Source of the DNA: a bacterium
GTDB taxonomy: Bacteria > Patescibacteriota > Andersenbacteria > UBA10190 > CAIZMI01
Reading direction: 5' to 3'
Assembly: GCA_030647555.1 (NCBI GenBank)
Contig: JAUSJG010000008.1
Coordinates: forward strand, 193,467-257,466
DNA: 64,000 nucleotides
Shown here: positions 2,646-63,997 of the stretch, one piece after another
Layout of the letters: every line of letters starts with the position of its first letter
Numbering within the stretch: the stretch's first letter is position 1
The notes under the pieces: model-generated
Databases searched by the model: none
Seen by the model: the letters and a program-made list of their open reading frames with translations, nothing else
Told to the model about the DNA's origin: nothing
Program-made: the position numbers and the translations under genes

Positions 2646-4657
2646 TGAACAAAAAAAGGATTTTGCTTAGTGTATTGCCGATACTGTTATTTACCGCGGT
2701 TGCTATTGTTTGGTTTTTTCCGGTAATAAGGAATTTTTCAACCTCTGTCGCGGGAATTGGCGGTGACCCCTACCAAACACTATGGCGGTTTAATCGTTTA
2801 GGAGAAACGGTAAGTCAAGGATCATTATTCGTTCCTGAAGAAAAATCGCTTCCGAATTTGGCGCCGCTTCCTTGGTTGCCGGTTTTTTATTTGTTTGGGG
2901 ACGTGGTTGCGTACAACACGGCGTGGTTGGTGTCCGCCATTTTGGCGGGTTATCTTTGTTTTGTTTTAGCGCGACTTTGGGGAGCACAATTTTGGCCGGC
3001 ACTTGTCGCCGGGTTATTGGTCGAGTTTGCGCCGTATCGCATTGCCCAGTCATTGGGCCATTTTGGGGCGATGCAGTTTTGGGTACTATTGGCCGTTTTG
3101 ATTTGTTTAACGGCTTGGTATCGCAAAAATAATCTGTGGTTTTTTCTGCTTGGAATGCTTTTCTCAATTTGGACGGCATGGACCGATCATCAGTTGTTTA
3201 TAGTTTTGATGATAATTATTGGCGTTGTAGCGTTAATTTATTGGCGAGAAACCATTCGTAACGTTAAAAAGACGCCACTTCTGGTGTTAATTGCAGTGGT
3301 GATGGTTTGTATTTCGGTTTTGCCTTTCGCGAGATCGATATTTACTGTTTCCGATAATAGCAACCACTTTAATTTGGGTGGTGTACAGCGCGATAGTTAT
3401 TCCGCGACGTTGCGGTCAGTGCTTTTGCCCGCGCCTTTTTCATTAATTGGATCGCGGGTTTATAGTTTCAATTTGGCGACGGACAATGTGCAGGCGCTTG
3501 GTGTGGTTTTGCCTGTTGTGGTGTTGGTTCTTTTCATTGTGTCCAATAAAATGAAAAAAGATGTTGGGTTTGCAATTCTTATTTTGCTCGGATTGGTTCT
3601 TTCCTTTGGTGCGTCAGTGAGTATTCGTGGAATAAATATTCCTCTACCCGGAAAGTTGTTATTTGAATTGCCCATATTGTCCTCGATTCGTACAATTGGA
3701 CGGTTTGTTGTTTTGCCGGTGATTTTTTTACCAATTTATTTGGCAATCAAATGGGTGGCGAAGAAAAATATATATTGGTTTGTTATTGCTTTATTTTGCT
3801 TGTTGGAAATTATTCCCATTGCCGGTTTTCCTGTTTTAGTAATTGAACATACTAAAGCTAAACAAGTTGCCGAAAATTTGGGTACCGGTTCCGTGTTGGC
3901 GATACCCGCTTATACCAATTACCAATACGGATCAGAACAATTATATTATTCTTTGGATTATCAAAAACCAGTAGTCGGCAATTCGGCGCTTTCGCGCATT
4001 ATTGATCCAAAATCTTTGGAAGAATTTTTGGCGACGCCGGTAATTCGTGATTTGGTTTTATTGCGACTTTCGGATTTTGATTTGCCGACAATATTTGGAC
4101 AGGCCAATAAAGACATTGTTAATCTGGCATTCGCTTCGCAGGAAATTGGTAATGTTTTGTTGGAGACTAATCCATTGGGTGGCATGGTTTCGTTGGAAGG
4201 AAATAAACAAACTACTTTGGATAGTGTAAAAATTGAACAAGTAAAAAAATATTTGCGTGACAGTCTTGGTTTAAAAGAGAGTATGGTTGGAACAAGCACG
4301 TTTGTTTATGGTTTGCCCGTTAGCGGTATCGGGACCGCACAGTATTTTGTAATGGAGGGAAAAGGGTGGCAGATAAAGAAAAAGCTTGCTGATCGTAGTG
4401 TCGTTGAGCTACAAAAAGTTTCGGAGTTTTTTGTTTATTCCACCGAAAACAATGTTTTGGATTTGAGTATGACGGTTCTTGATTCGGCCGGAAATAGTGA
4501 TGTGATTATGCGAAGCGACCAAGGTGAACAAAGGGTATCATTTGGAACAAATGAGCGCATAAATATGGAGCTGGAAACGCAGGCAAACAAATTGGTTAAA
4601 TATACTCTTATACTTGACAAAAACCCTATTTTGGTGGAAAATCCACGGATAAAATAA
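2645..4657 (+). CDS. Polytopic integral membrane protein with a large C-terminal soluble domain (possible GT-C/YfhO-like glycosyltransferase)
   Basis: About 12 hydrophobic segments. ATGA start/stop overlap with the upstream GT-C gene. No soluble catalytic motif recognised. Confidence 0.4.
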   Translation: MNKKRILLSVLPILLFTAVAIVWFFPVIRNFSTSVAGIGGDPYQTLWRFNRLGETVSQGSLFVPEEKSLPNLAPLPWLPVFYLFGDVVAYNTAWLVSAILAGYLCFVLARLWGAQFWPALVAGLLVEFAPYRIAQSLGHFGAMQFWVLLAVLICLTAWYRKNNLWFFLLGMLFSIWTAWTDHQLFIVLMIIIGVVALIYWRETIRNVKKTPLLVLIAVVMVCISVLPFARSIFTVSDNSNHFNLGGVQRDSYSATLRSVLLPAPFSLIGSRVYSFNLATDNVQALGVVLPVVVLVLFIVSNKMKKDVGFAILILLGLVLSFGASVSIRGINIPLPGKLLFELPILSSIRTIGRFVVLPVIFLPIYLAIKWVAKKNIYWFVIALFCLLEIIPIAGFPVLVIEHTKAKQVAENLGTGSVLAIPAYTNYQYGSEQLYYSLDYQKPVVGNSALSRIIDPKSLEEFLATPVIRDLVLLRLSDFDLPTIFGQANKDIVNLAFASQEIGNVLLETNPLGGMVSLEGNKQTTLDSVKIEQVKKYLRDSLGLKESMVGTSTFVYGLPVSGIGTAQYFVMEGKGWQIKKKLADRSVVELQKVSEFFVYSTENNVLDLSMTVLDSAGNSDVIMRSDQGEQRVSFGTNERINMELETQANKLVKYTLILDKNPILVENPRIK

Positions 4658-5807: not shown

Positions 5808-6917
5808 ATGGCTCGGATTGCCCTTGAGGCGCGTTCATTGTCGACACTCGGTGGTGGCGTGCGTACTTACACAAAAGAAGTAATTAGTAGGATTTTGAAG
5901 GCTGAATCAAGTGATGAATATATTATTTATCACGATAGCAAAAAGAATCTCAGCAGTTTTCCCGGTGCGGAAGAAAAAGTTGTTTCGGTAGGGCACCCAT
6001 TGTTTCGCATCGGTTGGGACTATTTTTTACTGCCACAGGCGTTGAAACGGGACAAGATTGATTTCATTCATTATTTTAAACCGGCGACTACGCCATTTAA
6101 AAAACCCGTCGCGATTGCGACAATGTACGATGTTATTCCTTTGCTTTATCCGGAAACGCAAACGGCAATTCAGTTGGCTTATTGGCGCAAACAGTTACCG
6201 CTTACGGCGAAAACCTGCGCGCATTTGATAACGATATCGGAATGTTCAAAACGCGACATTGTGAGACTGTTGCAGGTTGATCCGGCCAAGATAACAGTGA
6301 CGCCACTCGGGGTTGATTCCAAGTTTAAACCGGTGTCGGAGATCGAAAAAATAGCGATGCGCGAAAAATATCGCTTGCCTGAAAAATATATATTGTATCT
6401 TGGTACAATAGAACCGCGAAAAAATGTCGCGCGATTAATTCGAGCGTTTAATAAAGTGGCCGGTAATATTCCACACAGTTTAGTGTTGGCTGGAAAATGG
6501 GGCTGGAGTTATGAGGATGTAAAAGAGGAAATTGCCAAATCGCCATTTAAAGACAGAATCATTAGTTTGTCATATGTCGAGTCGGAGTATTTGCCGTCAC
6601 TTTGTAGCGCCGCCAGTATATTTGTTTTTCCAAGCTTATATGAAGGTTATGGCTTGCCGCCACTGGAGGCAATGGCATGCGGAACGCCGGTAATTACATC
6701 AAATGTTTCCAGTTTACCGGAAGTGGTAGGTGACGCCGCGTTGACTGTTGATCCTTTGGACGAAGATGCTTTAAGTAAAGCAATTGAACGATTGGCTTTG
6801 GATACTGCGTTACAAAACGAATTAAGTGAAAAAGGATTAGCAAGAGCAAAACAATTTAATTGGGACAAGACAGCAGAAATGACGTTGGGTGTATACAAGA
6901 AAGTATTTCAATTATGA
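5808..6917 (+). CDS. Glycosyltransferase family 4
   Basis: 'EGYGLPPLEAMACGTPVITSNVSSLPEVVGDAA' GT4 signature. Confidence 0.85.
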   Translation: MARIALEARSLSTLGGGVRTYTKEVISRILKAESSDEYIIYHDSKKNLSSFPGAEEKVVSVGHPLFRIGWDYFLLPQALKRDKIDFIHYFKPATTPFKKPVAIATMYDVIPLLYPETQTAIQLAYWRKQLPLTAKTCAHLITISECSKRDIVRLLQVDPAKITVTPLGVDSKFKPVSEIEKIAMREKYRLPEKYILYLGTIEPRKNVARLIRAFNKVAGNIPHSLVLAGKWGWSYEDVKEEIAKSPFKDRIISLSYVESEYLPSLCSAASIFVFPSLYEGYGLPPLEAMACGTPVITSNVSSLPEVVGDAALTVDPLDEDALSKAIERLALDTALQNELSEKGLARAKQFNWDKTAEMTLGVYKKVFQL

Positions 6918-8227
6918 AAATCGCTTTCCTTTCCTCGCGTTTTCCGCCTGATTTTATTGGTGGTGGGGAATGGTCGACAAAATATATTGCAGAAGGCCTG
7001 GTCGCACTTGGTCACGACGTGACTGTTATTTGTGGTGCGGAAGAAAATAAAGAGGAAATAATTAATGGCTTAAAAGTTAAACGCGTCAAAGCGTTGTTTG
7101 GTCTTTGGGACAAACCGCTTTTGGAAAAACGAAAAAGTAAAAAACTGGCGTTGGTTCTAAAGAAAGAGCTTGATGAAAAATTCGACATAGTTCACGCGCA
7201 TGATTTTCGCACCGCGCAAGCTTTAGCATTATTGAATTTGCCAAACGCGGTTGTAACAATTCGTGATTTCGCGCCAATCTGTGGGACAACTAATAATATG
7301 TTGTTTGACGGTCAATCTTGTAATGGTTGTACGTTGGCAAGTGTTTGTTTTAAGTGTCATCGTGTGCGCGAAGCGTCGTTTGCGCGGAAGCCGTTTAGAA
7401 TTTGGCAATACAAATTCAATTTGGCTTTTCGCAATGAAACATATCAAAATATTAAGAATCAAATTTATATCAGTGAGGCATTGCGTTCGCGCGTCGTATC
7501 ACGACTGGAATTGCCAAAAAATACGGCGGTCATTTCGAATCCAGTTAGTCCGGATTGGTTGCAACCGATCATGTCGCAATTCCCTCCTTTGTTAAATGGC
7601 GCGGCGGGTTCCCCGAAAACATCCAGTGAATGTTTGAGAGGGTGCCAGCGCCGGCACATCAGTGCCGTGCTGGGCGGGGGTGGATTCCGAAATAAAATTG
7701 TTTACGCTGGCACGGTTGATGACTACAAGGGAGTAAAAATTTTAATCGATGCGTTCGCAAAGTTTCAGAAAATAGAAAAAGATGTTGAGTTGATAATTAT
7801 TGGTAAGGGCAAAATCGCAGAATATCAAAAATACATCGCGCAAAATTGTATCGATATATCGATACAATTTGTCGGTAAAAAAACACAAGAAGAAGTGAGA
7901 GAATATTTTGACGAGGCGTTGGTAATTGTACAGCCGAGTATTTGGGAAGAGCCGTTTGGCAGAACGATTATCGAAGCCTACGCGCGCGGTCGCGCCGTTG
8001 TGGCGTCTAATGTTGGCGGAATTAAAGAAACGTTCAAAGAAGGCACCGGTTATTTGGTAAAACCCGGGAGTGTTGATGAATTGCATTTAGCTCTTAAAAA
8101 GATTGTGGAAAACAAAGAAGAAACCCAAAAAATGGGCGAAATCGGCAGAGCATATGTAGAACAAAATTTTACCGCGCAAATTGTTGCGCAGAAATATTTG
8201 GATTATTATAATCATGCGACCAAATAG
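6914..8227 (+). CDS. Glycosyltransferase family 4 carrying a Cys-rich insertion and an in-frame repeat element
   Basis: Start taken at the ATG overlapping the upstream TGA (ATGA) rather than the ORF-track 6860. 'FPPDFIGGGEW' N-terminus and 'EEPFGRTIIEAYARGRAVVASNVGGIKE' C-terminus. The C-X12-C-X2-C-X5-C-X2-C segment lies at 7281-7370 and the repeat at 7579-7692. Confidence 0.8.
   Translation: MKIAFLSSRFPPDFIGGGEWSTKYIAEGLVALGHDVTVICGAEENKEEIINGLKVKRVKALFGLWDKPLLEKRKSKKLALVLKKELDEKFDIVHAHDFRTAQALALLNLPNAVVTIRDFAPICGTTNNMLFDGQSCNGCTLASVCFKCHRVREASFARKPFRIWQYKFNLAFRNETYQNIKNQIYISEALRSRVVSRLELPKNTAVISNPVSPDWLQPIMSQFPPLLNGAAGSPKTSSECLRGCQRRHISAVLGGGGFRNKIVYAGTVDDYKGVKILIDAFAKFQKIEKDVELIIIGKGKIAEYQKYIAQNCIDISIQFVGKKTQEEVREYFDEALVIVQPSIWEEPFGRTIIEAYARGRAVVASNVGGIKETFKEGTGYLVKPGSVDELHLALKKIVENKEETQKMGEIGRAYVEQNFTAQIVAQKYLDYYNHATK
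7579..7692. repeat. Composite hairpin repeat family A/B, copy 1 (left end plus A core), in-frame inside the GT4 CDS
   Basis: Near-identical to 27530-27645, including ...GAGGGTGCCAGCGCCGGCACATCAGTGCCGTGCYGGGCGGGGGTGGATTC. It is 114 bp, i.e. 38 codons. Confidence 0.8.
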
Positions 8228-10048: not shown

Positions 10049-10119
10049 AGGATAATTAGTGAAATGATAGTTGAAATTGTTCTTTATTACCAGGGCTTTT
10101 TTGGGTAAAAATTATTCAT

Positions 10120-10246
10120 AAAATCCCAATGACCAAATCTCAAATCCCAACAAAACTCTAAAACCTTAAATGACCAAAACTTTAGTTTTTGGGATTTAGG
10201 TAATTATGATTTTGTTGGACATTGGGGTTTGGTCATTGGGATTTAA
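10120..10246. repeat. Intergenic imperfect palindrome, family D, copy 1
   Basis: Left arm AAATCCCAATGACCAAATCTCAAATCCCAACAAAAC. Right arm GATTTTGTTGGACATTGGGGTTTGGTCATTGGGATTT. Confidence 0.8.
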
Positions 10247-10318
10247 AAATATTGTAAATTTTGATTGAAATTATAGTGCTTCAGTGCTACATTGAGCCAA
10301 CTAACAACTACTCTATAA

Positions 10319-11329
10319 ATGTTTAACCATCGCATCGGCATCGATCTGGGAACCGCAAATACGCTGGTCTATTTGCCAAAGCGGGGCGTGGTTCTCTCTG
10401 AACCTACAGTGGTGGCTGTTTCAGTTGAAGATAACAGAATTTTAGCTGTTGGAAATGAAGCAAAGGAAATGTTGGGAAGAACTCCGGAAAGCGTCATAAC
10501 GTCGCGTCCTTTGCGTGACGGAGTAATTGCTGATTTTCGTGTTACAGAAGCCATGTTACGCTATTTTATCGAGCGCGCGCTGGGGCGTGGAATTAGTTTT
10601 TTTCGACCGGATGTGATGATTGCCGTGCCTGCCGGTATTACCAGCACGGAAAGACGTGCTGTGACAGAGGCGGCCTTGTCGGCGGGCGCGAAAAACGCTT
10701 ATTTGGTTAAAGAACCGTTGGCGGCGGCAATCGGCGCGGGTATTCCGATTGGTGAGTCTTCAGGGAATATGGTGATCGATATCGGTGGTGGTACGTCGGA
10801 AGTGGCGGTGATTTCGCTTGGTGGAATCGTGGCATCGCATTCCGCGCGGGTTGGCGGTAATAAAATTGATGCGGCCATTGCCGAATACATTCGTAAACGT
10901 CACGGATTGTCTATTGGCGAAAGAACGGCGGAAGACGTGAAAATTGCCATTGGTAGCGCGCTCCCGGTAGAAGAGCAAAAAGAATATGTCATACGTGGTC
11001 GTGATGTTAGTAGTGGGTTGCCAAAAGAGATATCTATTTCTTCATATGAAGTAACGGAAGCAATTCAGGATGAGTTGGAGAATATTACGCAAGCAATAAA
11101 ACTTGTTTTGCAAGATACGCCACCGGAACTTTCAGCGGATGTTATCGATAAGGGGATTGTTTTATCGGGTGGTGGTTCGTTATTGCGCAATATGGATAAG
11201 CTTGTCGCCAAGGTTACAAGTGTGCCGTGTTCAATCGCTGAAAATCCTTTGCAGTGTGTGATTAAGGGTGTTGGCGTGGCGGTGGAAAATTTGGAAGTGT
11301 ACAAAAAAAGCTTACTGGCCGCACGCTAA
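10319..11329 (+). CDS. mreB: Rod shape-determining protein MreB
   Basis: 'IGIDLGTANTLVY', 'DIGGGTSEVAVISLGG' and 'LSGGGSLLRNMDKL' actin-fold motifs. Confidence 0.9.
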   Translation: MFNHRIGIDLGTANTLVYLPKRGVVLSEPTVVAVSVEDNRILAVGNEAKEMLGRTPESVITSRPLRDGVIADFRVTEAMLRYFIERALGRGISFFRPDVMIAVPAGITSTERRAVTEAALSAGAKNAYLVKEPLAAAIGAGIPIGESSGNMVIDIGGGTSEVAVISLGGIVASHSARVGGNKIDAAIAEYIRKRHGLSIGERTAEDVKIAIGSALPVEEQKEYVIRGRDVSSGLPKEISISSYEVTEAIQDELENITQAIKLVLQDTPPELSADVIDKGIVLSGGGSLLRNMDKLVAKVTSVPCSIAENPLQCVIKGVGVAVENLEVYKKSLLAAR

Positions 11330-13496: not shown

Positions 13497-13627
13497 GAAT
13501 TTTCAATTATCAATGACCAATTTTCAATCAATTATTAAATGGCTTAATTATCAAATAACGACGCCCCCATTGATAATTTAAGAATTGATCATTAATTGAT
13601 AATTGGTCATTGATAATTGAAAATTAG
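13497..13627. repeat. Intergenic palindromic element, family E, copy 1
   Basis: Perfect 25-bp inverted repeat AATTTTCAATTATCAATGACCAATT ... AATTGGTCATTGATAATTGAAAATT flanking a spacer of about 70 bp. Confidence 0.85.
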
Positions 13628-16313: not shown

Positions 16314-16334
16314 TTTTGCCTATGCAAAATTATT

Positions 16335-16488
16335 AAATCCCAATATCCAAACCCCAAATCCCAACAAAATCCCAATTATTTAAATCTCAAACCCCATGTT
16401 TGGTCATTTGTGGAATTAGGGTTTTGTTGGACATTGCCTGCCGGCCATAGCTTTAGCGACGGCTGGGTCATTAGGTTTTGGGATTTTT
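16335..16488. repeat. Intergenic imperfect palindrome, family D, copy 2
   Basis: Arms AAATCCCAATATCCAAACCCCAAATCCCAACAAAATCCC ... GGTCATTAGGTTTTGGGATTTTT, with an internal GTTTTGTTGGACATTG shared with copy 1. Confidence 0.8.
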
Positions 16489-18369: not shown

Positions 18370-18460
18370 AAGGTCGGACTTTGCGAAAAGGTCCGACCTT
18401 GATTGGTCGGCAAGAAGGATGCGACCAATGAGGGTCGGACCCCGCGAGGAGTCCGACCCT
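18370..18460 (+). repeat. Three consecutive perfect hairpins (GGTCGGAC family C) directly after the glyA stop
   Basis: Hairpin 1: AGGTCGGACTTT-GCG-AAAGGTCCGACCT. Hairpin 2: ATTGGTCG-N12-CGACCAAT. Hairpin 3: GGGTCGGAC-CCCGCGAGGA-GTCCGACCC. Related copies lie at 62151-62192 and 63169-63215. Confidence 0.75.
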
Positions 18461-18514
18461 GCTTACGGTTAAATATGTTGTTTAATTGTAATAATTCTGC
18501 TATAATATTTTACT

Positions 18515-19375: not shown

Positions 19376-19407
19376 TTTTCCATAAAAAGTTTTTGTGGGT
19401 CGCTGAT

Positions 19408-19445
19408 TTGTATATAGTATTTGGTATATAGTATATGGATTTAGT
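19408..19445. repeat. Short repeat H (TGTATATAGTATATGGATTTA), copy 1
   Basis: Matches 51787-51808. It is inverted at 51891-51918. Confidence 0.6.
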
Positions 19446-19493
19446 GGGCAATAATTTCGCTAGAATTTTTACGAATAGAAGTAGTTAAACATA

Positions 19494-22914: not shown

Positions 22915-22971
22915 TTGGTTATTCGGTATTCTGTTTAGTAATTGGTGGGCGTGTTTGGCTAGAAAGCTTTT

Positions 22972-23096
22972 AAACCCCAAATCCTAAACACCAATGTCCA
23001 ACAAAATCCTAATTATTTAAATCACAAAAAATACGTTTTAGTCATTAGGTTTTTTTGATTTTTGTTGGGATTTGGTCATTGGGATTTGGGTTTTTA
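22972..23096. repeat. Intergenic imperfect palindrome, family D, copy 3
   Basis: AAACCCCAAATCCTAAACACCAATGTCCAACAAAATCC ... TTTTTGTTGGGATTTGGTCATTGGGATTTGGG. Confidence 0.8.
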
Positions 23097-23137
23097 TATT
23101 GCTTGGTTTCTCGTTATGAGTCTGTTAATGTGTCATT

Positions 23138-27529: not shown

Positions 27530-27720
27530 CATTCCCTCCTTTATCAAATGGCGCGGCGGATGCCCCGAGAACATCCGGTGGATGTTCGAGAGGGTGCCAG
27601 CGCCGGCACATCAGTGCCGTGCCGGGCGGGGGTGGATTCTGAAAAGAATTCGTAATAATTACTTAATCCCTCCCATCCTCCCTTTGGTAAAGGGAGGAGA
27701 CGCGGTGATTTCGCAGAATT
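27530..27720. repeat. Full-length composite hairpin repeat (A core plus B hairpin arm), intergenic copy
   Basis: TTCCCTCCTTT...GTGCCAGCGCCGGCAC...GGGGTGGATTC...TTAATCCCTCCCATCCTCCCTTTGGTAAAGGGAGGAGACG. It is partly shared with 7579-7692 and 48121-48242. Confidence 0.8.
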
Positions 27721-27747: not shown

Positions 27748-28800
27748 ATGTTTGATCGACTATTCGGAAAATTTTCCCAGGATTTAGGGATCGATTTGGG
27801 CACCGCCAACACGCTTGTCTACAGCAAGGGAAAGGGAATTGTAATAAACGAACCATCGGTAGTGGCAATGAACACCAAGACCAAACAGATTTTGGCGATT
27901 GGCACCGAGGCGCGAAAAATGGTTGGTAAAACACCGGCCCACATTGTCGCCACGCGCCCACTCCGTGATGGTGTTATTTCCGATTTCGAAATTACCGAGC
28001 ACATGTTGCGTTATTTTATTGACAAAGTGCATCATGATTCGTTTTCGTTGGTGCCAAGACCACGCGTAATTATCGGTGTCCCGTCCGGTGTTACGGAGGT
28101 GGAAAAACGCGCCGTGGAAGACGCGGCCATGCGCGCCGGGGCACGCAAAGCTTTTCTTATTGAGGAACCAATGGCCGCGGCGATTGGTTCGAGACTTCCT
28201 GTTCAAGATTCGGCGGGAAATTTAATCGTTGATATTGGTGGAGGTACAACCGAAGTGGCCGTTATCTCTTTGGGAGGTGTCGTAGTGAGCCGTTCATTAA
28301 GAATTGCCGGAGACGAATTGAGCGAAAACGTCATTCAATACGCGCGTGATGAATTTAATTTGCTTTTGGGTGAACGTACAGCGGAAGGAATAAAAATCGG
28401 GATTGGGTCGGCTTGGGAACTTTCGGAACCGTTAGAAATGCCGATGCGAGGACGCGATCTTGTAACCGGACTTCCAAAGGAAGTAATTGTGAACGATACG
28501 CAAATTCGTGAAGCGTTAAGTCGTTCTGTGCGGACAATCGTCAACAGCGTTAAGGCCACAGTAGAAGAAACACCGCCGGAATTATTAGCCGATATTATGG
28601 AGCGGGGAATTGTCTTATCGGGTGGTGGCGCGCTTTTAAGAGGGTTAGATAAATTAATCGCGTCAACAACACATATTCCAACGCGTGTTGCCGATGATCC
28701 GTTAACCGCCGTCGTGCGAGGCACAGGCATTGTGTTGGAGGAATTGGAGTCATTACAGGAAGTGTTAGCCCCCTCCCCATCCCCAAAACCGTTGCGCTAG
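27748..28800 (+). CDS. mreB: MreB/Mbl actin-like paralog
   Basis: 'LGIDLGTANTLVY', 'DIGGGTTEVAVISLGG' and 'LSGGGALLRGLDKL'. Confidence 0.85.
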   Translation: MFDRLFGKFSQDLGIDLGTANTLVYSKGKGIVINEPSVVAMNTKTKQILAIGTEARKMVGKTPAHIVATRPLRDGVISDFEITEHMLRYFIDKVHHDSFSLVPRPRVIIGVPSGVTEVEKRAVEDAAMRAGARKAFLIEEPMAAAIGSRLPVQDSAGNLIVDIGGGTTEVAVISLGGVVVSRSLRIAGDELSENVIQYARDEFNLLLGERTAEGIKIGIGSAWELSEPLEMPMRGRDLVTGLPKEVIVNDTQIREALSRSVRTIVNSVKATVEETPPELLADIMERGIVLSGGGALLRGLDKLIASTTHIPTRVADDPLTAVVRGTGIVLEELESLQEVLAPSPSPKPLR

Positions 28801-30303: not shown

Positions 30304-30337
30304 AGGATCAGACGGTTAAACTGATTCCCGCCCTTCA

Positions 30338-30364
30338 GGGCGAGGCTCGCCCAGATGGGCGGCC
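30338..30364. repeat. 25-nt GC-rich repeat G, intergenic copy
   Basis: GGGCGAGGCTCGCCCAGATGGGCGGCC, nested inside CCCGCCC...GGGCGG. Confidence 0.8.
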
Positions 30365-33802: not shown

Positions 33803-33940
33803 GAGTCAATTTGAAATTTGAAATTTAGAATTTGAAATCAATTTTTAATATCTAAATTTGAAATACGAACGCGTTTTTTCAAATTAATTTATTACGATAT
33901 TTCAAATTGATTAAAAATTTCAAATTATAAATTAAAAATT
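33803..33940. repeat. Intergenic palindromic element, family F (TTGAAATTT words)
   Basis: TCAATTTGAAATTTGAAATTTAGAATTTGAAATCAATTTTTAA ... ATTTCAAATTGATTAAAAATTTCAAATT. Confidence 0.75.
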
Positions 33941-34656: not shown

Positions 34657-34668
34657 TAACCGGCGTAC

Positions 34669-34712
34669 CACTCCCGAAGTGGCCCAACGGATTCACTTCG
34701 GGAGTGGTTTTC
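34669..34712 (+). other. Second perfect 14-bp stem hairpin, 13 nt downstream of the greA terminator
   Basis: CCACTCCCGAAGTG-N12-CACTTCGGGAGTGG followed by TTTTCGG. Confidence 0.5.
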
Positions 34713-34745
34713 GGTTGGCGTCAATTTTTGTAGTATCATTAGGTA

Positions 34746-36323
34746 ATGCTCCAAAAAGAAGTTCTTGATATTCTTAAGACCGGTGCCTCGGTTTTTTTGA
34801 CCGGTGAACCCGGTAGTGGGAAGACACACGTTATTCGCGAATATATCAGATATTTGCGTTCCGTGAAAATTGATGTCGCGGTTACCGCTTCTACTGGAAT
34901 TGCGGCGACGCACCTTGGTGGCGTGACGATTAATTCTTGGAGCGGGATTGGGATTAAGAAAATTCTTTCGAAATATGATCTCGATTACATCGCGAGTAAT
35001 GAGTATTTGGTAAAAAGAATTACTAAAACGAAGGTGCTCATTATTGATGAGGTATCGATGTTGGATGGTAGTACATTGGATAGTATTGAACGTGTTTGTC
35101 GCGCCATCAAACAGTCGGAGTTGCCTTTTGGCGGGATGCAAACTGTTTTGGTTGGTGATTTTTTTCAACTTCCGCCCGTGGCCAGACAGGGCGAACCGCC
35201 GGCCAAATTCGCGTTTGATTGCGCCGCTTGGTTTAAGGGGAAATTTTTGGTCTGTTATTTGCATGAGCAGTTTCGGCAAAGTGATCAAGATTTTTTAAAT
35301 GTTTTATCGGCCGTGCGAAAAAACGCGGTAACAGATGAACATTTAGCGCATTTGGATAAGCGATGTGTGGAACTGGATTTTAGCGGTGCGACGCCCGCCC
35401 CGGGAGGCGAGGCTCGCCCTGATGGGCGGCAATTAACACGGTTATATTCACATAATTTGGATGTTGATAATGTTAATAATGAGGCGCTAAAGAAAATTCC
35501 CGGCGAGGCAAAGATATTTAAAATGGAAACAACCGGACGCAGAATATTGGTTGATCAAATTAAACGCGGTTGCTTATCGCCGGAAACTTTAGTGTTAAAA
35601 AAGGACGCAGTGGTGATGTTTACCAAAAATAGCCCCAAAGGATTGTTTGTTAACGGTACTTTGGGTCGTGTGGTGGAATTTAATTCATTTAGCGGAATGC
35701 CGGTGGTAAAAACAAAAGACGGCAGAAAGATTGAAACCGAAAAAATGGATTGGGCGATTGATGACAACGGGCGCGTGTTGGCGCGGGTCAGTCAAATTCC
35801 ATTGCGTCTGGCATGGGCTTTAACTGTTCATAAGAGTCAGGGGATGTCGCTGGACGTGGCGTTTATCGACTTGAGAACCGCTTTTGTGGCCGGTCAGGGT
35901 TATGTGGCATTATCGCGCGTGCGAACATTGCAGGGTTTGTTTTTGTGCGGGTATAACAAACAGGCTTTATTGGTGCATCCGGAAGTTTTAGTGAAAGATG
36001 TGGATTTTCGGGCGCAATCGGAAGCCCTGTCGCAAGAGTTTTCTAAATTATCGGCAGAGGAACTGGAAAAGATGCATCGGAATTATATTCAAGGAATGGG
36101 CGGTGTTTTGAAAACTAGCGGGGAAAGTGAAAAAAAATATTCCTTGGAAATAATTCGCGAAAAATTTAAAAATGCGTACGCCAAATGGACGGAGGAAGAT
36201 GACAAATTATTGGCGGAATTATTTGGCCAGGGCAGGGGATATAAGGATATGGCCAATCACTTTGGTCGTAAAACCGGCGCGATTACGGCGCGTTTAAAGA
36301 AACTAAAGCTGATTGAGGAATAA
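34746..36323 (+). CDS. SF1B RecD/Pif1-family DNA helicase with a C-terminal HTH-like tail
   Basis: 'LTGEPGSGKTH', 'LIIDEVSMLD' and 'VHKSQGMSLD'. Contains repeat G in-frame at 35406-35430. Confidence 0.75.
   Translation: MLQKEVLDILKTGASVFLTGEPGSGKTHVIREYIRYLRSVKIDVAVTASTGIAATHLGGVTINSWSGIGIKKILSKYDLDYIASNEYLVKRITKTKVLIIDEVSMLDGSTLDSIERVCRAIKQSELPFGGMQTVLVGDFFQLPPVARQGEPPAKFAFDCAAWFKGKFLVCYLHEQFRQSDQDFLNVLSAVRKNAVTDEHLAHLDKRCVELDFSGATPAPGGEARPDGRQLTRLYSHNLDVDNVNNEALKKIPGEAKIFKMETTGRRILVDQIKRGCLSPETLVLKKDAVVMFTKNSPKGLFVNGTLGRVVEFNSFSGMPVVKTKDGRKIETEKMDWAIDDNGRVLARVSQIPLRLAWALTVHKSQGMSLDVAFIDLRTAFVAGQGYVALSRVRTLQGLFLCGYNKQALLVHPEVLVKDVDFRAQSEALSQEFSKLSAEELEKMHRNYIQGMGGVLKTSGESEKKYSLEIIREKFKNAYAKWTEEDDKLLAELFGQGRGYKDMANHFGRKTGAITARLKKLKLIEE
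35406..35430. repeat. 25-nt GC-rich repeat G, in-frame copy inside the helicase CDS
   Basis: GGCGAGGCTCGCCCTGATGGGCGGC. It encodes ...GGEARPDGRQ... Confidence 0.8.
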
Positions 36324-43895: not shown

Positions 43896-45133
43896 TTGCT
43901 ATTTCCCTCGCTCCAAATTTTGAAACAAAGGACGCTTTATTGGCACTGAAACAGCTGTTTTTGCCATGGCGTTGGCGTAAAGGTACTGCCAATCAAAGAT
44001 TGGTCGCTAAATTACAAGCAATACTTGGCAGGAAGGAAATTTATACGGTTAATAGCGCGCGTTGGGGACTATATTTATTGCTTCAGAATTTGCGTCTTGA
44101 GAAAGATACGGAAGTTTTATTGCAGGCGTTTACTTGCGTCTCCGTTCCAGGCCCGGTGCTCTGGAATAATTTGAAACCGGTTTACGTTGATATTCTGGAA
44201 AGAGAATTAACAATGGATCCTCTTGATCTGGAGCGAAAAATTACAGCTAAAAGTCGGGTAATTATTGTTCAACACACTTTTGGCATACCGGCTCGGATGG
44301 ACGAAATAATGACGATTGCCAAGAAACACAACTTAATTGTGATCGAGGATTGCGCACATACGCTTGGAGGGAAACATCGCGATAAGCTTTTGGGCACGAT
44401 TGGTGACGCCTCAATTTTTAGTTTTGGTCGCGACAAAGCAATCTCAAGTGTTTTTGGTGGTGCAATTATGGTTAATAATCAAAAAGTGTTTACTAGTATT
44501 AAGTCTGCTGTGGCAGAATTGCCATTGAGTAAAAACGGGTGGGTTCTCCAGCAACTGATGCATCCGATTTTGTTTGAGTTGATTATTAAGCCATTATATT
44601 TCACGGCGCAGATCGGAAAGATAAAATTAGTCTTCGCTCAGAAGGTCGGTCTGCTTTCTAAAGCCATCGCGTCACATGAAAAGTCTGGCGGTAAGCCCGC
44701 TTTTGAATGCGCAAAATTATCAAACGCGTTGGCGGAACTGGCCTGTTTTCAATTAAGCCGGTTAGAGGCATTTAACGCGCGTCGTCGCGAAATCGTTGAA
44801 ATATACAACAAGGAATTACACCAATCTGGTTTTGATGGACAGAGTTTATTGCGTTATCCGATTTTTGTTGATGAACCGCGAAAATTGTTATTAGCGGCTC
44901 GCAAAGAAAAGATTTTGCTAGGGGACTGGTATGAAGTGATTGCGCCAAAAGACACGGATCTAAAGGCCGTACAATATGTCGCGGGTTCTTGTCCAGTGGC
45001 GGAATCGGTCGCTAAGAGAGAGATAAATTTACCGACCTACTACACGCTAAAAAACAGTGACCTAAAGAAAATCGTGGAGTTTACTTTAAGGACTGTCCCT
45101 AAAGTAAACGGCTACTTTAGGGACAGTCCTTAA
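43892..45133 (+). CDS. DegT/DnrJ/EryC1/ArnB-family PLP-dependent sugar aminotransferase
   Basis: 'DASIFSFGRDKAISSVFGGAI' (PLP Lys region) and 'IIVQHTFGIPARMDEI'. Confidence 0.7.
   Translation: MIAISLAPNFETKDALLALKQLFLPWRWRKGTANQRLVAKLQAILGRKEIYTVNSARWGLYLLLQNLRLEKDTEVLLQAFTCVSVPGPVLWNNLKPVYVDILERELTMDPLDLERKITAKSRVIIVQHTFGIPARMDEIMTIAKKHNLIVIEDCAHTLGGKHRDKLLGTIGDASIFSFGRDKAISSVFGGAIMVNNQKVFTSIKSAVAELPLSKNGWVLQQLMHPILFELIIKPLYFTAQIGKIKLVFAQKVGLLSKAIASHEKSGGKPAFECAKLSNALAELACFQLSRLEAFNARRREIVEIYNKELHQSGFDGQSLLRYPIFVDEPRKLLLAARKEKILLGDWYEVIAPKDTDLKAVQYVAGSCPVAESVAKREINLPTYYTLKNSDLKKIVEFTLRTVPKVNGYFRDSP
45090..45129 (+). other. Perfect 17-bp stem hairpin within the last 14 codons of the aminotransferase CDS
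   Basis: GGACTGTCCCTAAAGTA-AACGGC-TACTTTAGGGACAGTCC. Confidence 0.6.
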
Positions 45134-45145
45134 AGTGTTAAACCT

Positions 45146-46539: not shown

Positions 46540-48249
46540 TTAAGGGTTACCCTTAAAGTACTTTCTCACCACGATATCTCCTTGATATCCAAACAGTTCC
46601 GAAAAACTTTTTTCCGATTCTAGTTTATATTCATCCGATACTGATAGTTTTGAACCTCCGAAACCGGTTGTGTCCACCGCCCAAATTACATCCGGTTTTT
46701 CTTGAAATATTTCGGGGCCGACAATATCATCTTTTGTTAGAATCGGTCCGCCACTGAAATGGGAAAGTTCGCCTGTTTCAGAATATAAACGCGGTGGCGT
46801 AATCTCCCCTTGCCCCGCTCTGATGAGCGAGGCTCGCCCAGATGGGCGGCCCTCTTTATTAAAGAAGGGAACGCTTGAGTGAAACAAGACCGAAAAATAG
46901 ACAAAACTGGAACTAACAAGGATTGGTTCGTTTTGATTGGCATTTTGTCGGAGATATTGTACGGCCGTGACTGTTCCGGGGTGATCTTGAAAATGCAGTG
47001 ATGTCCAGAATTGATTGACTGTATAAAAGCCATATCCGGCTATTATTAGCGCCACAACGGAACTAATATAAAACTTTTTTGGTAATAACGAAATACTGCG
47101 GGCAAGCAAGATAATTAATGGAATAGACGCAAAAACAAAGTAGCGGTCTTGGTAGATACTTGTTCCGCGTGATAGATACCACGCGCCAAGAAATGGAATA
47201 ATGAATGATGAAACAAGAAGCCAGTCGCCTTTTTTTCGACCAAATAATAGAGGAATAATTAATAATAAGGCAACCAAGACGGTGCAAATTATTGCGGTTT
47301 GATGAGAGAAATCACTTACTCCACCCAAGAGAAGGCGGGACATTGTGTTTGGAATCGACCAATCGTTCATCGGCGGAATCCAGTAGCTTTGTTGGACTTG
47401 GGCACGCTGTTTCAGGAAAGTTGTAAGCCAGGGCAGAAAAATGAGAACGGATAAAATCATACCGGATACTAATGACCATGTGTTGGCACTGCGAAGAGTC
47501 ACTAATGGTTTTTTAACAAGACGCAATATTAAATATCCGCCGATAAAAATAAAAATTCCCACGATGCTAAACAGGGCAAAGTAGTGGACATGAAATAACG
47601 CACCGATCAAAAGTCCTAAAATGATTCCGTCTCGCCAAATTTTTTTCGTCTCGGTTTGTTGTGCCGTCTTAATCATATATACCAACGCAAAACAGAGAAT
47701 TAGCGTACCGAGAGTGTACATTCTGGTTTCCCATGCGTATTGCACTTGAAAGGCGGAGACAGACGTTAAAAGGGCGCCAATAATCCCAACGCGTCTTGAG
47801 TTGAATAAAACTTTACCAGAAAAATAAACACCAAGGACTGTGGCGAAGGAAAGCAGTACGGAAAGAAGACGCAACCAAAATAAACTCACGTCTATTCCAA
47901 GTATGTGGAGAGGCGCGTTCCATAACCAAAGAATTAAGTAATAAAGAATCGGATGCACATCAGCGGCGGCGCGCTGTAAAAATTCCAGAAATGGGAATTG
48001 GATGAGACGCCACGAAAAGGCTTCGTCAAACCAAAGGGAACGGTCGGTGAGATGGGTAAGGCGGATAAGGAATGCAGACAGAAGAATGATGAACAGCGTG
48101 AAAGTAGTTATCAAGTTGTGCGCGTCGCGTTTCCCTCCCTTATTCAAGGGAGGGAGAGGGTGGGTTAGGAATGGGATCGCGCAAAACTTTCTTAATCCCT
48201 CCCAACCTCCCTTTGGTAAAGGGAGGAGACGACGCGACACCATTTTCAC
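46540..48249 (-). CDS. GT-C glycosyltransferase, ArnT/PMT-like, with a repeat-encoded N-terminus and a soluble C-terminal domain
   Basis: 'LWFDEAFSWRL' DE motif after TM1. GTG start. Residues about 3-43 are encoded by the composite repeat. Repeat G lies in-frame at 46825-46851. Confidence 0.6.
   Translation of the reverse strand: MKMVSRRLLPLPKGGWEGLRKFCAIPFLTHPLPPLNKGGKRDAHNLITTFTLFIILLSAFLIRLTHLTDRSLWFDEAFSWRLIQFPFLEFLQRAAADVHPILYYLILWLWNAPLHILGIDVSLFWLRLLSVLLSFATVLGVYFSGKVLFNSRRVGIIGALLTSVSAFQVQYAWETRMYTLGTLILCFALVYMIKTAQQTETKKIWRDGIILGLLIGALFHVHYFALFSIVGIFIFIGGYLILRLVKKPLVTLRSANTWSLVSGMILSVLIFLPWLTTFLKQRAQVQQSYWIPPMNDWSIPNTMSRLLLGGVSDFSHQTAIICTVLVALLLIIPLLFGRKKGDWLLVSSFIIPFLGAWYLSRGTSIYQDRYFVFASIPLIILLARSISLLPKKFYISSVVALIIAGYGFYTVNQFWTSLHFQDHPGTVTAVQYLRQNANQNEPILVSSSFVYFSVLFHSSVPFFNKEGRPSGRASLIRAGQGEITPPRLYSETGELSHFSGGPILTKDDIVGPEIFQEKPDVIWAVDTTGFGGSKLSVSDEYKLESEKSFSELFGYQGDIVVRKYFKGNP
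46825..46851. repeat. 25-nt GC-rich repeat G, in-frame copy inside the GT-C CDS
   Basis: GAGCGAGGCTCGCCCAGATGGGCGGCC. On the minus strand it encodes ...EGRPSGRASLIRAG... Confidence 0.8.
48121..48242. repeat. Composite hairpin repeat, short variant with terminal inverted repeats
   Basis: CGCGTCGCGTTTCCCTCCCTTATTCAAGGGAGGG...CTTAATCCCTCCCAACCTCCCTTTGGTAAAGGGAGGAGACGACGCGAC. Confidence 0.8.
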
Positions 48250-51772: not shown

Positions 51773-51918
51773 ATGTATATGGTATTTTGTATATAGTATA
51801 TGGATTTATTGACCGAAGACATGAAACGAAATATTTTAAAAAAACTTTTATTGGTGCGGAATACTTGACGACAGATTCGCCTTCTAAATCAATATACTAC
51901 ATACCATATACAAAATAC
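51773..51918. repeat. Inverted pair of H repeats flanking about 80 bp upstream of dnaX
   Basis: CAATGTATATGGTATTTTGTATATAGTATATGG and its inverted partner AATATACTACATACCATATACAAAATAC. Confidence 0.6.
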
Positions 51919-53652: not shown

Positions 53653-54336
53653 TTAATTACCGAGAAATTTTTTGGTTGATAATTCCGTCCAGATTGAAAT
53701 TTGTCGATTGAGCCAGGTACTTTTTTTAACAGTTAGCCGAATCAATCCAATATAGTTTGCGTCTTTATTGTGACGAAATACTGAATTATTGTTCTTAATT
53801 ACAACTAGTAAATCATTCGGTTGAATCTGTAGTTTTTGTGACCATTGTATTCGTGATAAATTTATATCAGCGGTTTTGTGGATATATAGACTATATATTA
53901 ATTCGGAGTCCTGTTTATTGGCATAGGTTTTCAACCATTGACGCATAATCATAATCGCCGATGGATCAGAGTTGCTGAATTGAACCCGCGCGGACACGTT
54001 CCATGGTTTTTGTTTTGATCCTTCGGCCCAATAAAGTGAAAGTCCGAAATTAAAGAATGGGTCAGAATATAGGTTGCTAAAATTTGCGGTGATTTCGTTT
54101 TTTAGTGAATTGGTTTTAGAAATTCTTTGATTTCTTTTTGCGAGTGCCCCCGCATTTTGACCGGCTTTACGTAGTGAATCCAGGCGTTTTTTTAATGGGG
54201 GCGCCAACTTGATTTTGCAAAGCCATGTAGAAAGAGTAGACTTTGTTACAGGAATTTGTTGAGCAATTTCACTATAGGAAAAACCTTGAAGTCGTAATTG
54301 TTCTGCCTCATGCCTTTCTTTAGTTTTAGATATCAT
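53653..54336 (-). CDS. Hypothetical protein with an N-terminal HTH and a degenerate LAGLIDADG-like segment
   Basis: 'GFSYSEIAQQIPVTKSTLSTWL' HTH and 'FNFGLSLYWAEGSK'. No confident family assignment. Confidence 0.35.
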   Translation of the reverse strand: MISKTKERHEAEQLRLQGFSYSEIAQQIPVTKSTLSTWLCKIKLAPPLKKRLDSLRKAGQNAGALAKRNQRISKTNSLKNEITANFSNLYSDPFFNFGLSLYWAEGSKQKPWNVSARVQFSNSDPSAIMIMRQWLKTYANKQDSELIYSLYIHKTADINLSRIQWSQKLQIQPNDLLVVIKNNNSVFRHNKDANYIGLIRLTVKKSTWLNRQISIWTELSTKKFLGN

Positions 54337-54415: not shown

Positions 54416-54489
54416 TCCGGGATCGTCTAACGGCAGGACGCCGCTCTTTGGAAGCGATAATCTTGGTTCGATTCCAAGTCCCGGAGCCA
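54416..54489 (+). tRNA. tRNA-Gln (anticodon UUG)
   Basis: Acceptor stem TCCGGGA/TCCCGGA, T-arm CTTGG-TTCGATT-CCAAG, anticodon loop CTTTGGA, discriminator G, and an encoded CCA. Confidence 0.8.
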
Positions 54490-58983: not shown

Positions 58984-59115
58984 AAAATTTTCAATTATCA
59001 ATTTTACAATTTTCAATTAATTTTCAAAATTATAATTATCAAACGATGGCGGTTTTTTGAAAATTTGGTCATTTAGAAATTAATTGAAAATTGGCCATTG
59101 ATAATTGATAATTAA
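58984..59115. repeat. Intergenic palindromic element, family E, copy 2
   Basis: AAATTTTCAATTATCAATTTTACAATTTTCAATTAATTTTC ... GAAAATTGGCCATTGATAATTGATAATT, plus an internal TTTGGTCATTT. Confidence 0.75.
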
Positions 59116-63632: not shown

Positions 63633-63971
63633 ATGTATATTTTTTTAGACGAAAGCGGACAGTTCATAAAACACAATGACGATGATTATTTTGTTGTAGC
63701 ATCTTTTACTGTTGATGATCCGCGGCGAACGCAAAAAAGATTTAAAACCTGGCAGAAAACAAGGTTCCCCAAAAGAATGCGCAATCAGGCGGAAATAAAA
63801 TATTCTGCGGTAGATATTTCCGAATTACTGCGTTTGAGGACGCTAAAGTTTATTTCTAGACTTGATGTGCGAATAAATTATACATTCCTGAAGAGAAAAA
63901 ATATTCCTGACAATTTTGTTAAGAAAAACAAAAATAAATTATACATTCCTGAAGAGAAAAAATATTCCTGA
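63633..63971 (+). pseudogene. DUF3800-family gene, frameshifted by a 61-bp tandem duplication
   Basis: 'MYIFLDESGQF' DUF3800 N-terminal hallmark. The duplication at 63876-63997 shifts the frame to a premature TGA. Confidence 0.5.
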
Positions 63972-63997
63972 CAATTTTGTTAAGAAAAACAAAACTC
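63876..63997 (+). repeat. Perfect 61-bp tandem duplication (2 copies)
   Basis: AAATTATACATTCCTGAAGAGAAAAAATATTCCTGACAATTTTGTTAAGAAAAACAAAA repeated head-to-tail. Confidence 0.85.

Follow-up and report, generated by a model that had tools for sequence, protein, structure and literature searches.

The Rickettsia palindromic elements (RPEs), as treated in section 4.2 of PMC10969869 and in the passages of PMC3184786 and PMC3733652 that concern them, are 105- to 150-nt repeats located within open reading frames (ORFs) whose products are likely functional proteins; how such repeats can be reconciled with the protein fold is discussed there as well. Repetitive extragenic palindromic (REP) sequences with GTAG or CGTC tags are likewise found inside genes in several phyla, with REP dimers encoding 20 to 30 residues (PMC3733652), and fusions of ERIC, BOX, and RUP repeats with ORFs have been described (PMC3184786). 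None of PMC10969869, PMC3184786, and PMC3733652 lists Patescibacteria among its phyla, and a full-text search of the literature returned nothing relevant on miniature transposable elements with inverted repeats (MITEs) or REPs in the candidate phyla radiation (CPR)/Patescibacteria. Here, we analyzed a 64-kb stretch of Patescibacteria DNA (contig JAUSJG010000008.1; hereafter the window) in which a GC-rich hairpin repeat, A-long, is present once in frame inside the gene of a family 4 glycosyltransferase (GT4) and once between genes. The assignment to Patescibacteria is indirect, through homologs bearing the names Patescibacteria group, Parcubacteria, and Andersenbacteria. A-long is likely a non-autonomous and non-coding palindromic repeat of the REP/RPE type, ~108 to 120 nt long, that spreads now or once spread in a narrow Patescibacteria lineage and one copy of which landed in a linker of the GT4 protein.

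To the extent that the three sources portray RPEs (Ogata et al. 2000, 2002, cited via PMC10969869, PMC3184786, and PMC3733652), A-long shares a number of features with them. Both are palindromic, fall in or near a length of 105 to 150 nt, reside in small AT-rich genomes, and have no associated transposase gene. Copies are both intergenic and in frame in functional genes, orthologs of those genes lack the insert, and the insertion site is one that the fold tolerates. In the same descriptions RPEs carry a CGTC end tag that the 114-nt element lacks, their hosts are Alphaproteobacteria rather than Patescibacteria, and their known copies number dozens rather than four; the comparison is one of descriptions. 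Direct reading of the 114-nt element found no CGTC/GACG and no GTAG/CTAC. The Rickettsia RPE families proper (RPE-1 to RPE-10; CGTC-1/-4) were set apart by description, given the missing CGTC tag and a host that is not Rickettsia. What A-long does have in common with the RPE-like class is that it is a dispersed, hairpin-forming repeat of ~100 to 150 nt that sits in frame in an intact gene whose orthologs lack it. The original prediction had such elements as poorly catalogued in small AT-rich genomes, which overlooks the Rickettsia elements (PMC10969869, PMC3733652). The kind of element to which A-long belongs is known, and so, from Rickettsia, is in-frame insertion itself; A-long adds a new family, in a lineage for which we found no report.

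The host gene and the two A-long copies of the window, W1 and W2, are as follows.

6914..8227, plus strand: GT4 glycosyltransferase of the GT-B fold, 437 amino acids, identical to NCBI MDO8512213.1

7579..7692, plus strand: A-long copy W1, inside the GT4 coding sequence, in frame, residues F223-F258 plus flanking residues (nhmmer E value, 5e-37)

27531..27644, plus strand: A-long copy W2, the best-folding one, intergenic, with proS (stop at 27513) on one side and mreB (start at 27748) on the other, co-oriented with both

Positions 7579-7701 and 27531-27653 (repeat family D1 of the window) were 89% identical over 123 nt without a gap. A 27-mer core, GCCAGCGCCGGCACATCAGTGCCGTGC, was confined in the window to 7644 and 27596 even with up to three mismatches allowed, against an expectation of 0.00 from shuffled sequences. 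The GC contents of the two copies were 59 to 62%, in comparison to 42.9% across the window. The original prediction of a GC-rich repeat, unlike its host, occurring both within the GT4 coding sequence and in an intergenic region near 27530 was thus borne out. So was its translation of the genic copy: the GT4 ORF reads through W1 as ...SQFPPLLNGAAGSPKTSSECLRGCQRRHISAVLGGGGFRNK... (in context, also ...PIMSQFPPLLNGAAGSPKTSSECLRGCQRRHISAVLGGGGFRNKIVYAGT...), and the stretches encoded by the insert include GAAGSPKTSSECLR and GCQRRHISAVLGGGGF. The proposed length of exactly 114 bp, or 38 codons, could be upheld only in that the insert is in frame. The ends of W1 are fuzzy by up to ~8 nt (left, 7572-7580; right, 7687-7692), and the unambiguous repeat body, TTCCC...GGATTC, covers 7580-7687, which is 36 codons. 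The insert adds a whole number of codons and no in-frame stop, and so the GT4 gene stays open. All three forward frames of the A-long consensus are open, which makes in-frame survival easy.

Comparison with related proteins identified the segment as an addition. The GT4 protein, annotated in MDO8512213.1 as "MAG: glycosyltransferase family 4 protein [bacterium]," has 35 to 38 extra residues (F223-F258; nt 7580-7687) that were absent from 16 of 16 aligned orthologs (39 to 79% identity; ~400 amino acids each). The earlier suggestion to align the protein against its paralogs and homologs gave a consistent answer: the extra residues were also missing from four glycosyltransferase paralogs in the window and from five syntenic ortholog loci (L005, L006, L019, L020, and L021; loci outside the window carry L numbers), where the GT4 genes encode 399 to 405 amino acids. 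In the two closest orthologs, L005 and L006, the empty site is visible in the DNA, as the alignment to the window breaks at 7569-7571 and resumes at 7690-7694. The gene order, including PMT_2, DUF6311, three GT4 genes, PEGA, and MreB, is common to L019, L020, L021, and the window, and the host gene is part of a conserved cell envelope glycosylation cluster. Relative to its orthologs, GT4 showed a dN/dS ratio of 0.09 to 0.11 with a proportion of synonymous differences (pS) of 0.63, near saturation, and the glutamates of the EX7E-type motif, E346 and E354, were invariant across the ortholog alignment. W1 and W2 differ by only ~9 to 11%, with eight nonsynonymous changes to one synonymous change. 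Set against the ortholog pS of 0.63, this small divergence indicates that the split from those orthologs long predates the insertion. The alignments show that A-long entered GT4 after this lineage parted from all sampled orthologs, and, as judged from substitution patterns, the host gene has remained under purifying selection. The window encodes two MreB paralogs (10319..11329 and 27748..28800); one is embedded in the glycosyltransferase cluster, and mreC and PBP2 lie downstream of the second.

To locate the insert in the protein, AlphaFold2 was run on the ortholog alignment; the resulting model was confident (mean predicted local distance difference test [pLDDT] score, 86.3; predicted template modeling [pTM] score, 0.84) and displayed a GT-B enzyme with its two Rossmann-like halves. 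Residues 226-257, inside the insert, were the sole stretch with a pLDDT below 50 and had no secondary structure. They are positioned between a helix (213-216) and the strand with which the C-terminal domain begins (260-265), so that the model places the insertion at a fold-compatible surface position in the interdomain linker. The linker before the C-terminal domain is also variable in length among the glycosyltransferase paralogs of the window. In the model, the insert is probably a tolerated, disordered surface loop of 36 to 38 residues, rich in Gly, Ala, Ser, Arg, and Cys.

The hairpins of A-long are conserved between genes and eroding in GT4. The element begins with ATTCCCTCC and ends with GGGTGGATT (the ends can also be written ATTCCCTCC...GGTGGATTC), and in the consensus fold these termini pair as an outer stem around two hairpins: the first, long but interrupted, has GAACATCC-NGT-GGATGTTC as its cap, and the second is GGCAC-NNNN-GTGCC. 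Two hairpins are perfect in W2, namely GAACATCC-GGT-GGATGTTC and (C)GGCAC-ATCA-GTGCC(G), and the former is weakened in W1. The several perfect hairpins of the original prediction are therefore found in W2, and folds are conserved across copies, but the description does not extend fully to the genic copy. By direct count in the three intergenic copies (W2 and the two described below), none of 52 inner stem columns was variable, versus three of seven hairpin-loop columns, an outcome with a chance of ~0.001. Each of the four changes in stems is found in W1 alone. The RNA fold z-score was -3.5 for W2 and -0.96, no better than shuffled sequence, for W1. Stems that are kept in the intergenic copies and eroded in the GT4 copy, together with the 8:1 excess of nonsynonymous changes, argue that the hairpins matter to the element. 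The encoded peptide, from these same comparisons, does not appear to matter, and the genic copy appears to be drifting and decaying.

An exact-pattern scan of GTDB representatives, one genome per species, found true A-long copies outside the window only in one metagenome-assembled genome (MAG), CAIZMI01 (Loc090907-8-6m_bin-405). Further copies had been proposed as a check on the prediction, and the scan returned these two, both intergenic.

L001:6407-6508, sense: A-long copy downstream of rpoC and a separate hairpin, 94% identical to W2

L004:2262-2374, antisense to both neighboring genes: A-long copy exactly between the stop of a yebC-like gene and ruvC, 93% identical to W2

The CAIZMI01 copies were 85 to 88% identical to W1. 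A-long is thus present in another genome at loci unrelated to GT4. Two other matches of the GTDB scan, in a Pseudomonas genome and a Pseudomonadota MAG (2 of 4), were rejected as chance matches. Viral contigs gave no match to the A-long core or to the hairpin of module B, a second repeat unit described below, and distant blastn searches of phage and plasmid collections found no copy. An nhmmer search with four module profiles on ~120 kb of relatives' loci recovered no further A-long, only module-B-like and A-short-like sequences. The A-long family looks narrow, though exact-word scans miss diverged copies.

With respect to other classes of small repeats, A-long resembles REPs and bacterial interspersed mosaic elements in its GC-rich stem-loops, conserved in the stem and variable in the loop, its mosaic of modules, its placement just downstream of genes, and the occasional in-frame intragenic unit; apparent N-terminal extensions of genes by REPs are probably untranslated (PMC3733652). 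However, at 114 nt the unit is roughly as long as three REPs (20 to 40 nt each), has no GTAG or CGTC tag, and has no REP-associated tyrosine transposase (RAYT) gene in the window. Like the MITEs (Correia/NEMIS, ERIC, RUP, BOX, Nezha, and Chunjie), A-long is small, non-autonomous, repeated, and foldable, can be fused in frame to an ORF, and shows filled and empty sites between relatives. The defining 15- to 30-bp terminal inverted repeats (TIRs) and target-site duplications of MITEs are absent at the 114-nt element. A classical MITE or Correia label was therefore rejected, as there is no target-site duplication and the TIR matches at only six of nine positions. The "MITE/REP/Correia-like" designation first given to the repeat survives as far as a small non-autonomous element that tolerates in-frame insertion; with the MITE hallmarks missing, REP/RPE-like is the better label. 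This assignment fits because the element is rich in hairpins and has no duplication, no long terminal repeats, and no linked transposase. The GC-rich palindromes of AT-rich mitochondrial genomes, such as the GC clusters of yeast var1 and double-hairpin elements, are likewise hairpin modules that invade their genomes, in frame in coding sequence too. They are organellar and unrelated in sequence.

Several observations weigh against a mobile REP/RPE-type repeat. Only four copies of A-long are known, two in the window and two in one other MAG. Among metagenome contigs, the exact 20-mer GAGGGTGCCAGCGCCGGCAC had eight matches, none of them a copy of the element, although diverged copies may be missed by such a word; seven of these chance matches were in contigs of 59 to 72% GC and one was in a contig of 49% GC. 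No target-site duplication was seen at any copy, the flanks GTCGCA|...|CGAAAT, GGAGTC|...|TGAAAA, and AGCGGA|...|TGAAAT containing no direct repeat, and the element ends agree as an inverted pair (ATTCCCTCC/GGGTGGATT) at no more than six of nine positions. No transposase, RAYT, or Y1 domain was found in the ~53 ORFs of the window, so that mobility is read solely from the distribution of the copies. The strict conservation of stems over two genomes could mean a cellular function of the intergenic copies. Finally, (C/T)GAAA(A/T) follows all three complete copies on the 3' side, and this flank could belong to the element, there being three sites only. The corresponding empty GT4 site in orthologs contains no duplicated bases and already reads GGAAAAG or GGCAAAAAA, and from the same three sites there is a hint that GAAA(A/T) reflects a target preference rather than element sequence. 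As a separate observation, a 227-residue ORF at 53653-54336 (minus strand), next to tRNA-Gln (54416-54489), has a weak, sub-threshold HTH_38 match, the sole transposase-like hint in the window. HTH_38 domains are common in IS30-type transposases.

The route by which A-long came to its present locations can be proposed in outline. The element would be mobilized in trans by an enzyme encoded outside the window, one that most likely acts on single-stranded DNA hairpins, as do RAYTs or the tyrosine (HUH) transposases of the IS200/IS605 type. A single-strand HUH route is favored because there is no target-site duplication and no long TIR, the body is rich in hairpins, and GAAA(A/T) is shared. As shown by the alignments above, one copy went into the variable stretch that joins the two Rossmann domains (N- and C-terminal) of GT4, where it is read as a loop; the enzyme remains under purifying selection and the insert drifts. 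Intergenic copies may have a secondary use as hairpins, in RNA or in DNA, with mRNA stabilization as one example, but nothing requires that.

The most substantial competing explanation of A-long is that it is a functional structured RNA or DNA hairpin (an mRNA stabilizer, a processing site, or a protein-binding site) selected between genes, the GT4 copy being an accidental by-product. Such a function would be in keeping with the perfectly conserved stems and variable loops of the intergenic copies in two genomes, with the sense orientation of three of the four copies, with their closeness to the 3' ends of upstream genes, as for many REPs (PMC3733652), and with the finding that the same intercistronic junction holds different GC hairpins in relatives. 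We nevertheless consider it unlikely. Rfam offered no family for the element at the gathering score or at E values up to 10, where the matches were miRNA-like hairpin noise, and the single match in the window at the gathering score was a tRNA. The L004 copy is antisense to transcription, a scan around W2 found no promoter- or terminator-like site, and the fold z-scores of A-long are modest, the value for W2 as RNA given above being accompanied by about -1 to -2.7 as DNA. A cellular function would also leave the dispersal to unrelated loci, a coding sequence included, unexplained, and a route of spreading would still be needed.

The reverse direction, in which the insert is an adaptive, lineage-specific addition to the protein, such as an interaction loop, and the intergenic copies derive from the gene, seems very improbable. 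The GT4 gene is intact and under purifying selection, and an insert rich in Cys and Arg could in principle bind a partner, but the insert is absent in every ortholog, is predicted to be disordered, and differs from W2 mostly by nonsynonymous changes. The intergenic copies fold better and are nearer to the family consensus than the genic copy, the similarity between copies stops before the GT4 flanks, and the copies in the other genome adjoin unrelated genes. Slightly less credible still is a repeat misjoined into the gene during assembly. The source is a MAG and repeats are prone to assembler error; against this, the gene is in frame on both sides of the insert and in perfect synteny with its orthologs, and the contig is long, at 257,598 bp. 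W1 moreover has private substitutions and is 11% diverged from W2, which excludes collapse or duplication of a read path. Two further candidates were rejected: an intein, intron, or translational-bypass element, as the insert is open in frame and needs no splice or bypass signal, and a duplicated gene fragment, as similarity between copies ends at the element ends. We thus retain the non-autonomous REP/RPE-type repeat as the likely identity of A-long.

A-long is accompanied in the window by two other hairpin units, module B and A-short.

27651..27705, plus strand: module B, TTAATCCCTCCC followed by the hairpin CCTCCCTTTGGTAAAGGGAGG and AGACG, 3' of W2 (nhmmer E value, 2e-17)

48118..48178, plus strand: A-short, GTGCGCGTCGCG, then a 10-bp hairpin, TCCCTCCCTT-ATTC-AAGGGAGGGA, then GAGGGTGGGTTAGGAA

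48180..48240, plus strand: second copy of module B with the right inverted terminus CGACGCGACAC, completing a composite with 48118-48178

W2 runs on, 6 nt later, into the 55-nt module B, in line with the earlier statement that the copy at 27530 continues into a hairpin arm. Module B at 27651-27702 is 90% identical to 48180-48231, the second copy extending to 48234, and the perfect hairpin CCTCCCTTTGGTAAAGGGAGG occurs in the window only in these two copies. Together, A-short and the second module B make up a three-hairpin composite of ~123 nt (48118-48240) closed by inverted ends of ~11 nt, GTGCGCGTCG and CGACGCGACAC, and its RNA fold z-scores were -6.2 and -6.05 on the two strands. The terminal inverted repeats attributed to 48121-48242 are therefore present. 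The same segment had also been called a shorter third copy of the repeat, and that reading fails: it lacks the 76-nt GC core and is instead a distinct composite, related through modules in common. With A-long, 48118-48242 has in common ~20 nt at the 5' end (TTCCCTCC.TTAT.CAA) and ~12 nt of GGGTGG.TT, in addition to module B downstream of W2; in terms of units, what A-short shares with A-long is the 5' arm with its loop plus the GGGTGG.TT tail, the 76-nt core being absent. A second A-short copy, at L004:5797-5849, keeps the stem with a different loop, and a weak relative is found at L019:12985-13025.

The composite lies between two genes for family 39 glycosyltransferases (GT39) on the minus strand and is itself open on that strand. 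The NCBI model translates it as a 43-residue N-terminal extension of the GT39 protein encoded at 46540..48249 (minus strand), and this extension was absent in 13 homologs. The true GT39 start is probably downstream of the composite, at a TTG near 48113. An extension of this kind resembles REPs at the 5' ends of ORFs (PMC3733652). The composite by analogy resembles a head-to-head REP dimer in its overall look, with CGTC/GACG near the outer ends and a self-complementary spacer. It differs in that the CGTC tag is 5 nt away from the stem and in that the stems, of 8 to 10 bp, have a composition unlike that of the four described CGTC families.

Another GC-rich family in the window, D3, is a double-hairpin repeat of the form CCCGCCC-N4-GGGCGAGGCTCGCCC-N4-GGGCGGC with three copies.

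30327-30363: D3 copy, intergenic

35394-35430: D3 copy, in frame in a PIF1-like helicase, encoding 13 residues, SGATPAPGGEARP, without a counterpart in 11 homologs

46814-46850: D3 copy, in frame in a loop of the GT39 gene at 46540..48249 (minus strand)

Since D3 is in frame in both the helicase and GT39, in-frame repeats are a recurrent behavior in this window, which suggests a frequency of 3 to 4 cases per 64 kb. The GT39 loop (window positions 46780-46900) holds differing GC hairpin modules in four relatives. In the window, the module is D3; at L015:10284-10317 and L017:6526-6560 it is the module-B-like CCCCCTTTACCAAGGGGGGATTAAGGGGGAT, with the peptide PFTKGGLRGI; and in L016 (~3770-3800) it is CATTCCTGCGCAAGCAGGCATCC. 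More distant GT39 homologs have an ordinary GVRYGIA loop, and the loop looks like an insertion hot spot. The junction of the tandem GT39 genes likewise carries the composite in the window and different hairpins at L015:8985-9060, L016:2445-2530, and L017:5240-5290. A hairpin of the GGTCGGACC type found at these L015-L017 junctions, GGGTCGGACCCCGCGAGGAGTCCGACCC, is also present at 18432-18468, between the genes for SHMT and FolD.

Three hairpin modules in one GT39 loop among four relatives, and three different hairpins at one gene junction, could be taken to indicate something more: an undescribed, active hairpin-repeat system with a GAAA target and a single-strand transposase, repeatedly hitting the same loops and junctions of envelope glycosyltransferases and generating diversity of protein surfaces rather than mere junk. 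We offer this as a speculative and rather doubtful extension of the REP/RPE-type reading of A-long.

Other short sequences are shared between the window and related loci. Intergenic sequences with 83 to 90% identity link 34666-34722 to L004:225-281, and 33808-33849 and 33904-33940 to L005:2807-2848. A 38-nt motif, TGTATATAGTATTTGGTATATAGTATATGGATTTA, is found at 19405-19446, 51774-51811, and L004:5851-5889 with 92 to 97% conservation, and may represent either a regulatory or promoter-like element or one more repeat. The shared intergenic sequences suggest that the lineage has further repeat families in common. Within the window, an AT-rich palindromic family (AAATCCCAA...TTGGGATTT) occupies intergenic positions 10112-10254, 16325-16436, and 22963-23098, each as an inverted repeat of ~60 to 70 nt. 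A second AT-rich inverted-repeat family (ATTAATTGATAATTGGTCATTGATAATTGAAAATTA) is present at 13498-13626 and 59007-59114, upstream of secA and of a UvrD/PD-(D/E)XK helicase-nuclease gene. At 45083-45136, the boundary of DegT-like aminotransferase and FemAB-like genes holds a perfect inverted repeat (24 nt; spacer, 6 nt). At the end of the window, a perfect tandem duplication of a 61-nt unit (63872-63993) overlaps the ORF at 63633..63971.

The presence of A-long in GT4 suggests that "selfish DNA inside genes" of the RPE type is not restricted to Rickettsia and a handful of Proteobacteria. Such elements would also exist in ultra-small, streamlined, uncultured bacteria, in which extra bases are usually assumed to be under pressure. 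There is a consequence for annotation as well, in that low-complexity inserts and N-terminal extensions specific to Patescibacteria lineages may be translated repeats and not functional domains; both the GT4 insert and the 43-residue GT39 extension are in NCBI protein models. For finding the mobilizing enzyme in these genomes, the conserved hairpin modules, few in number, provide a handle.

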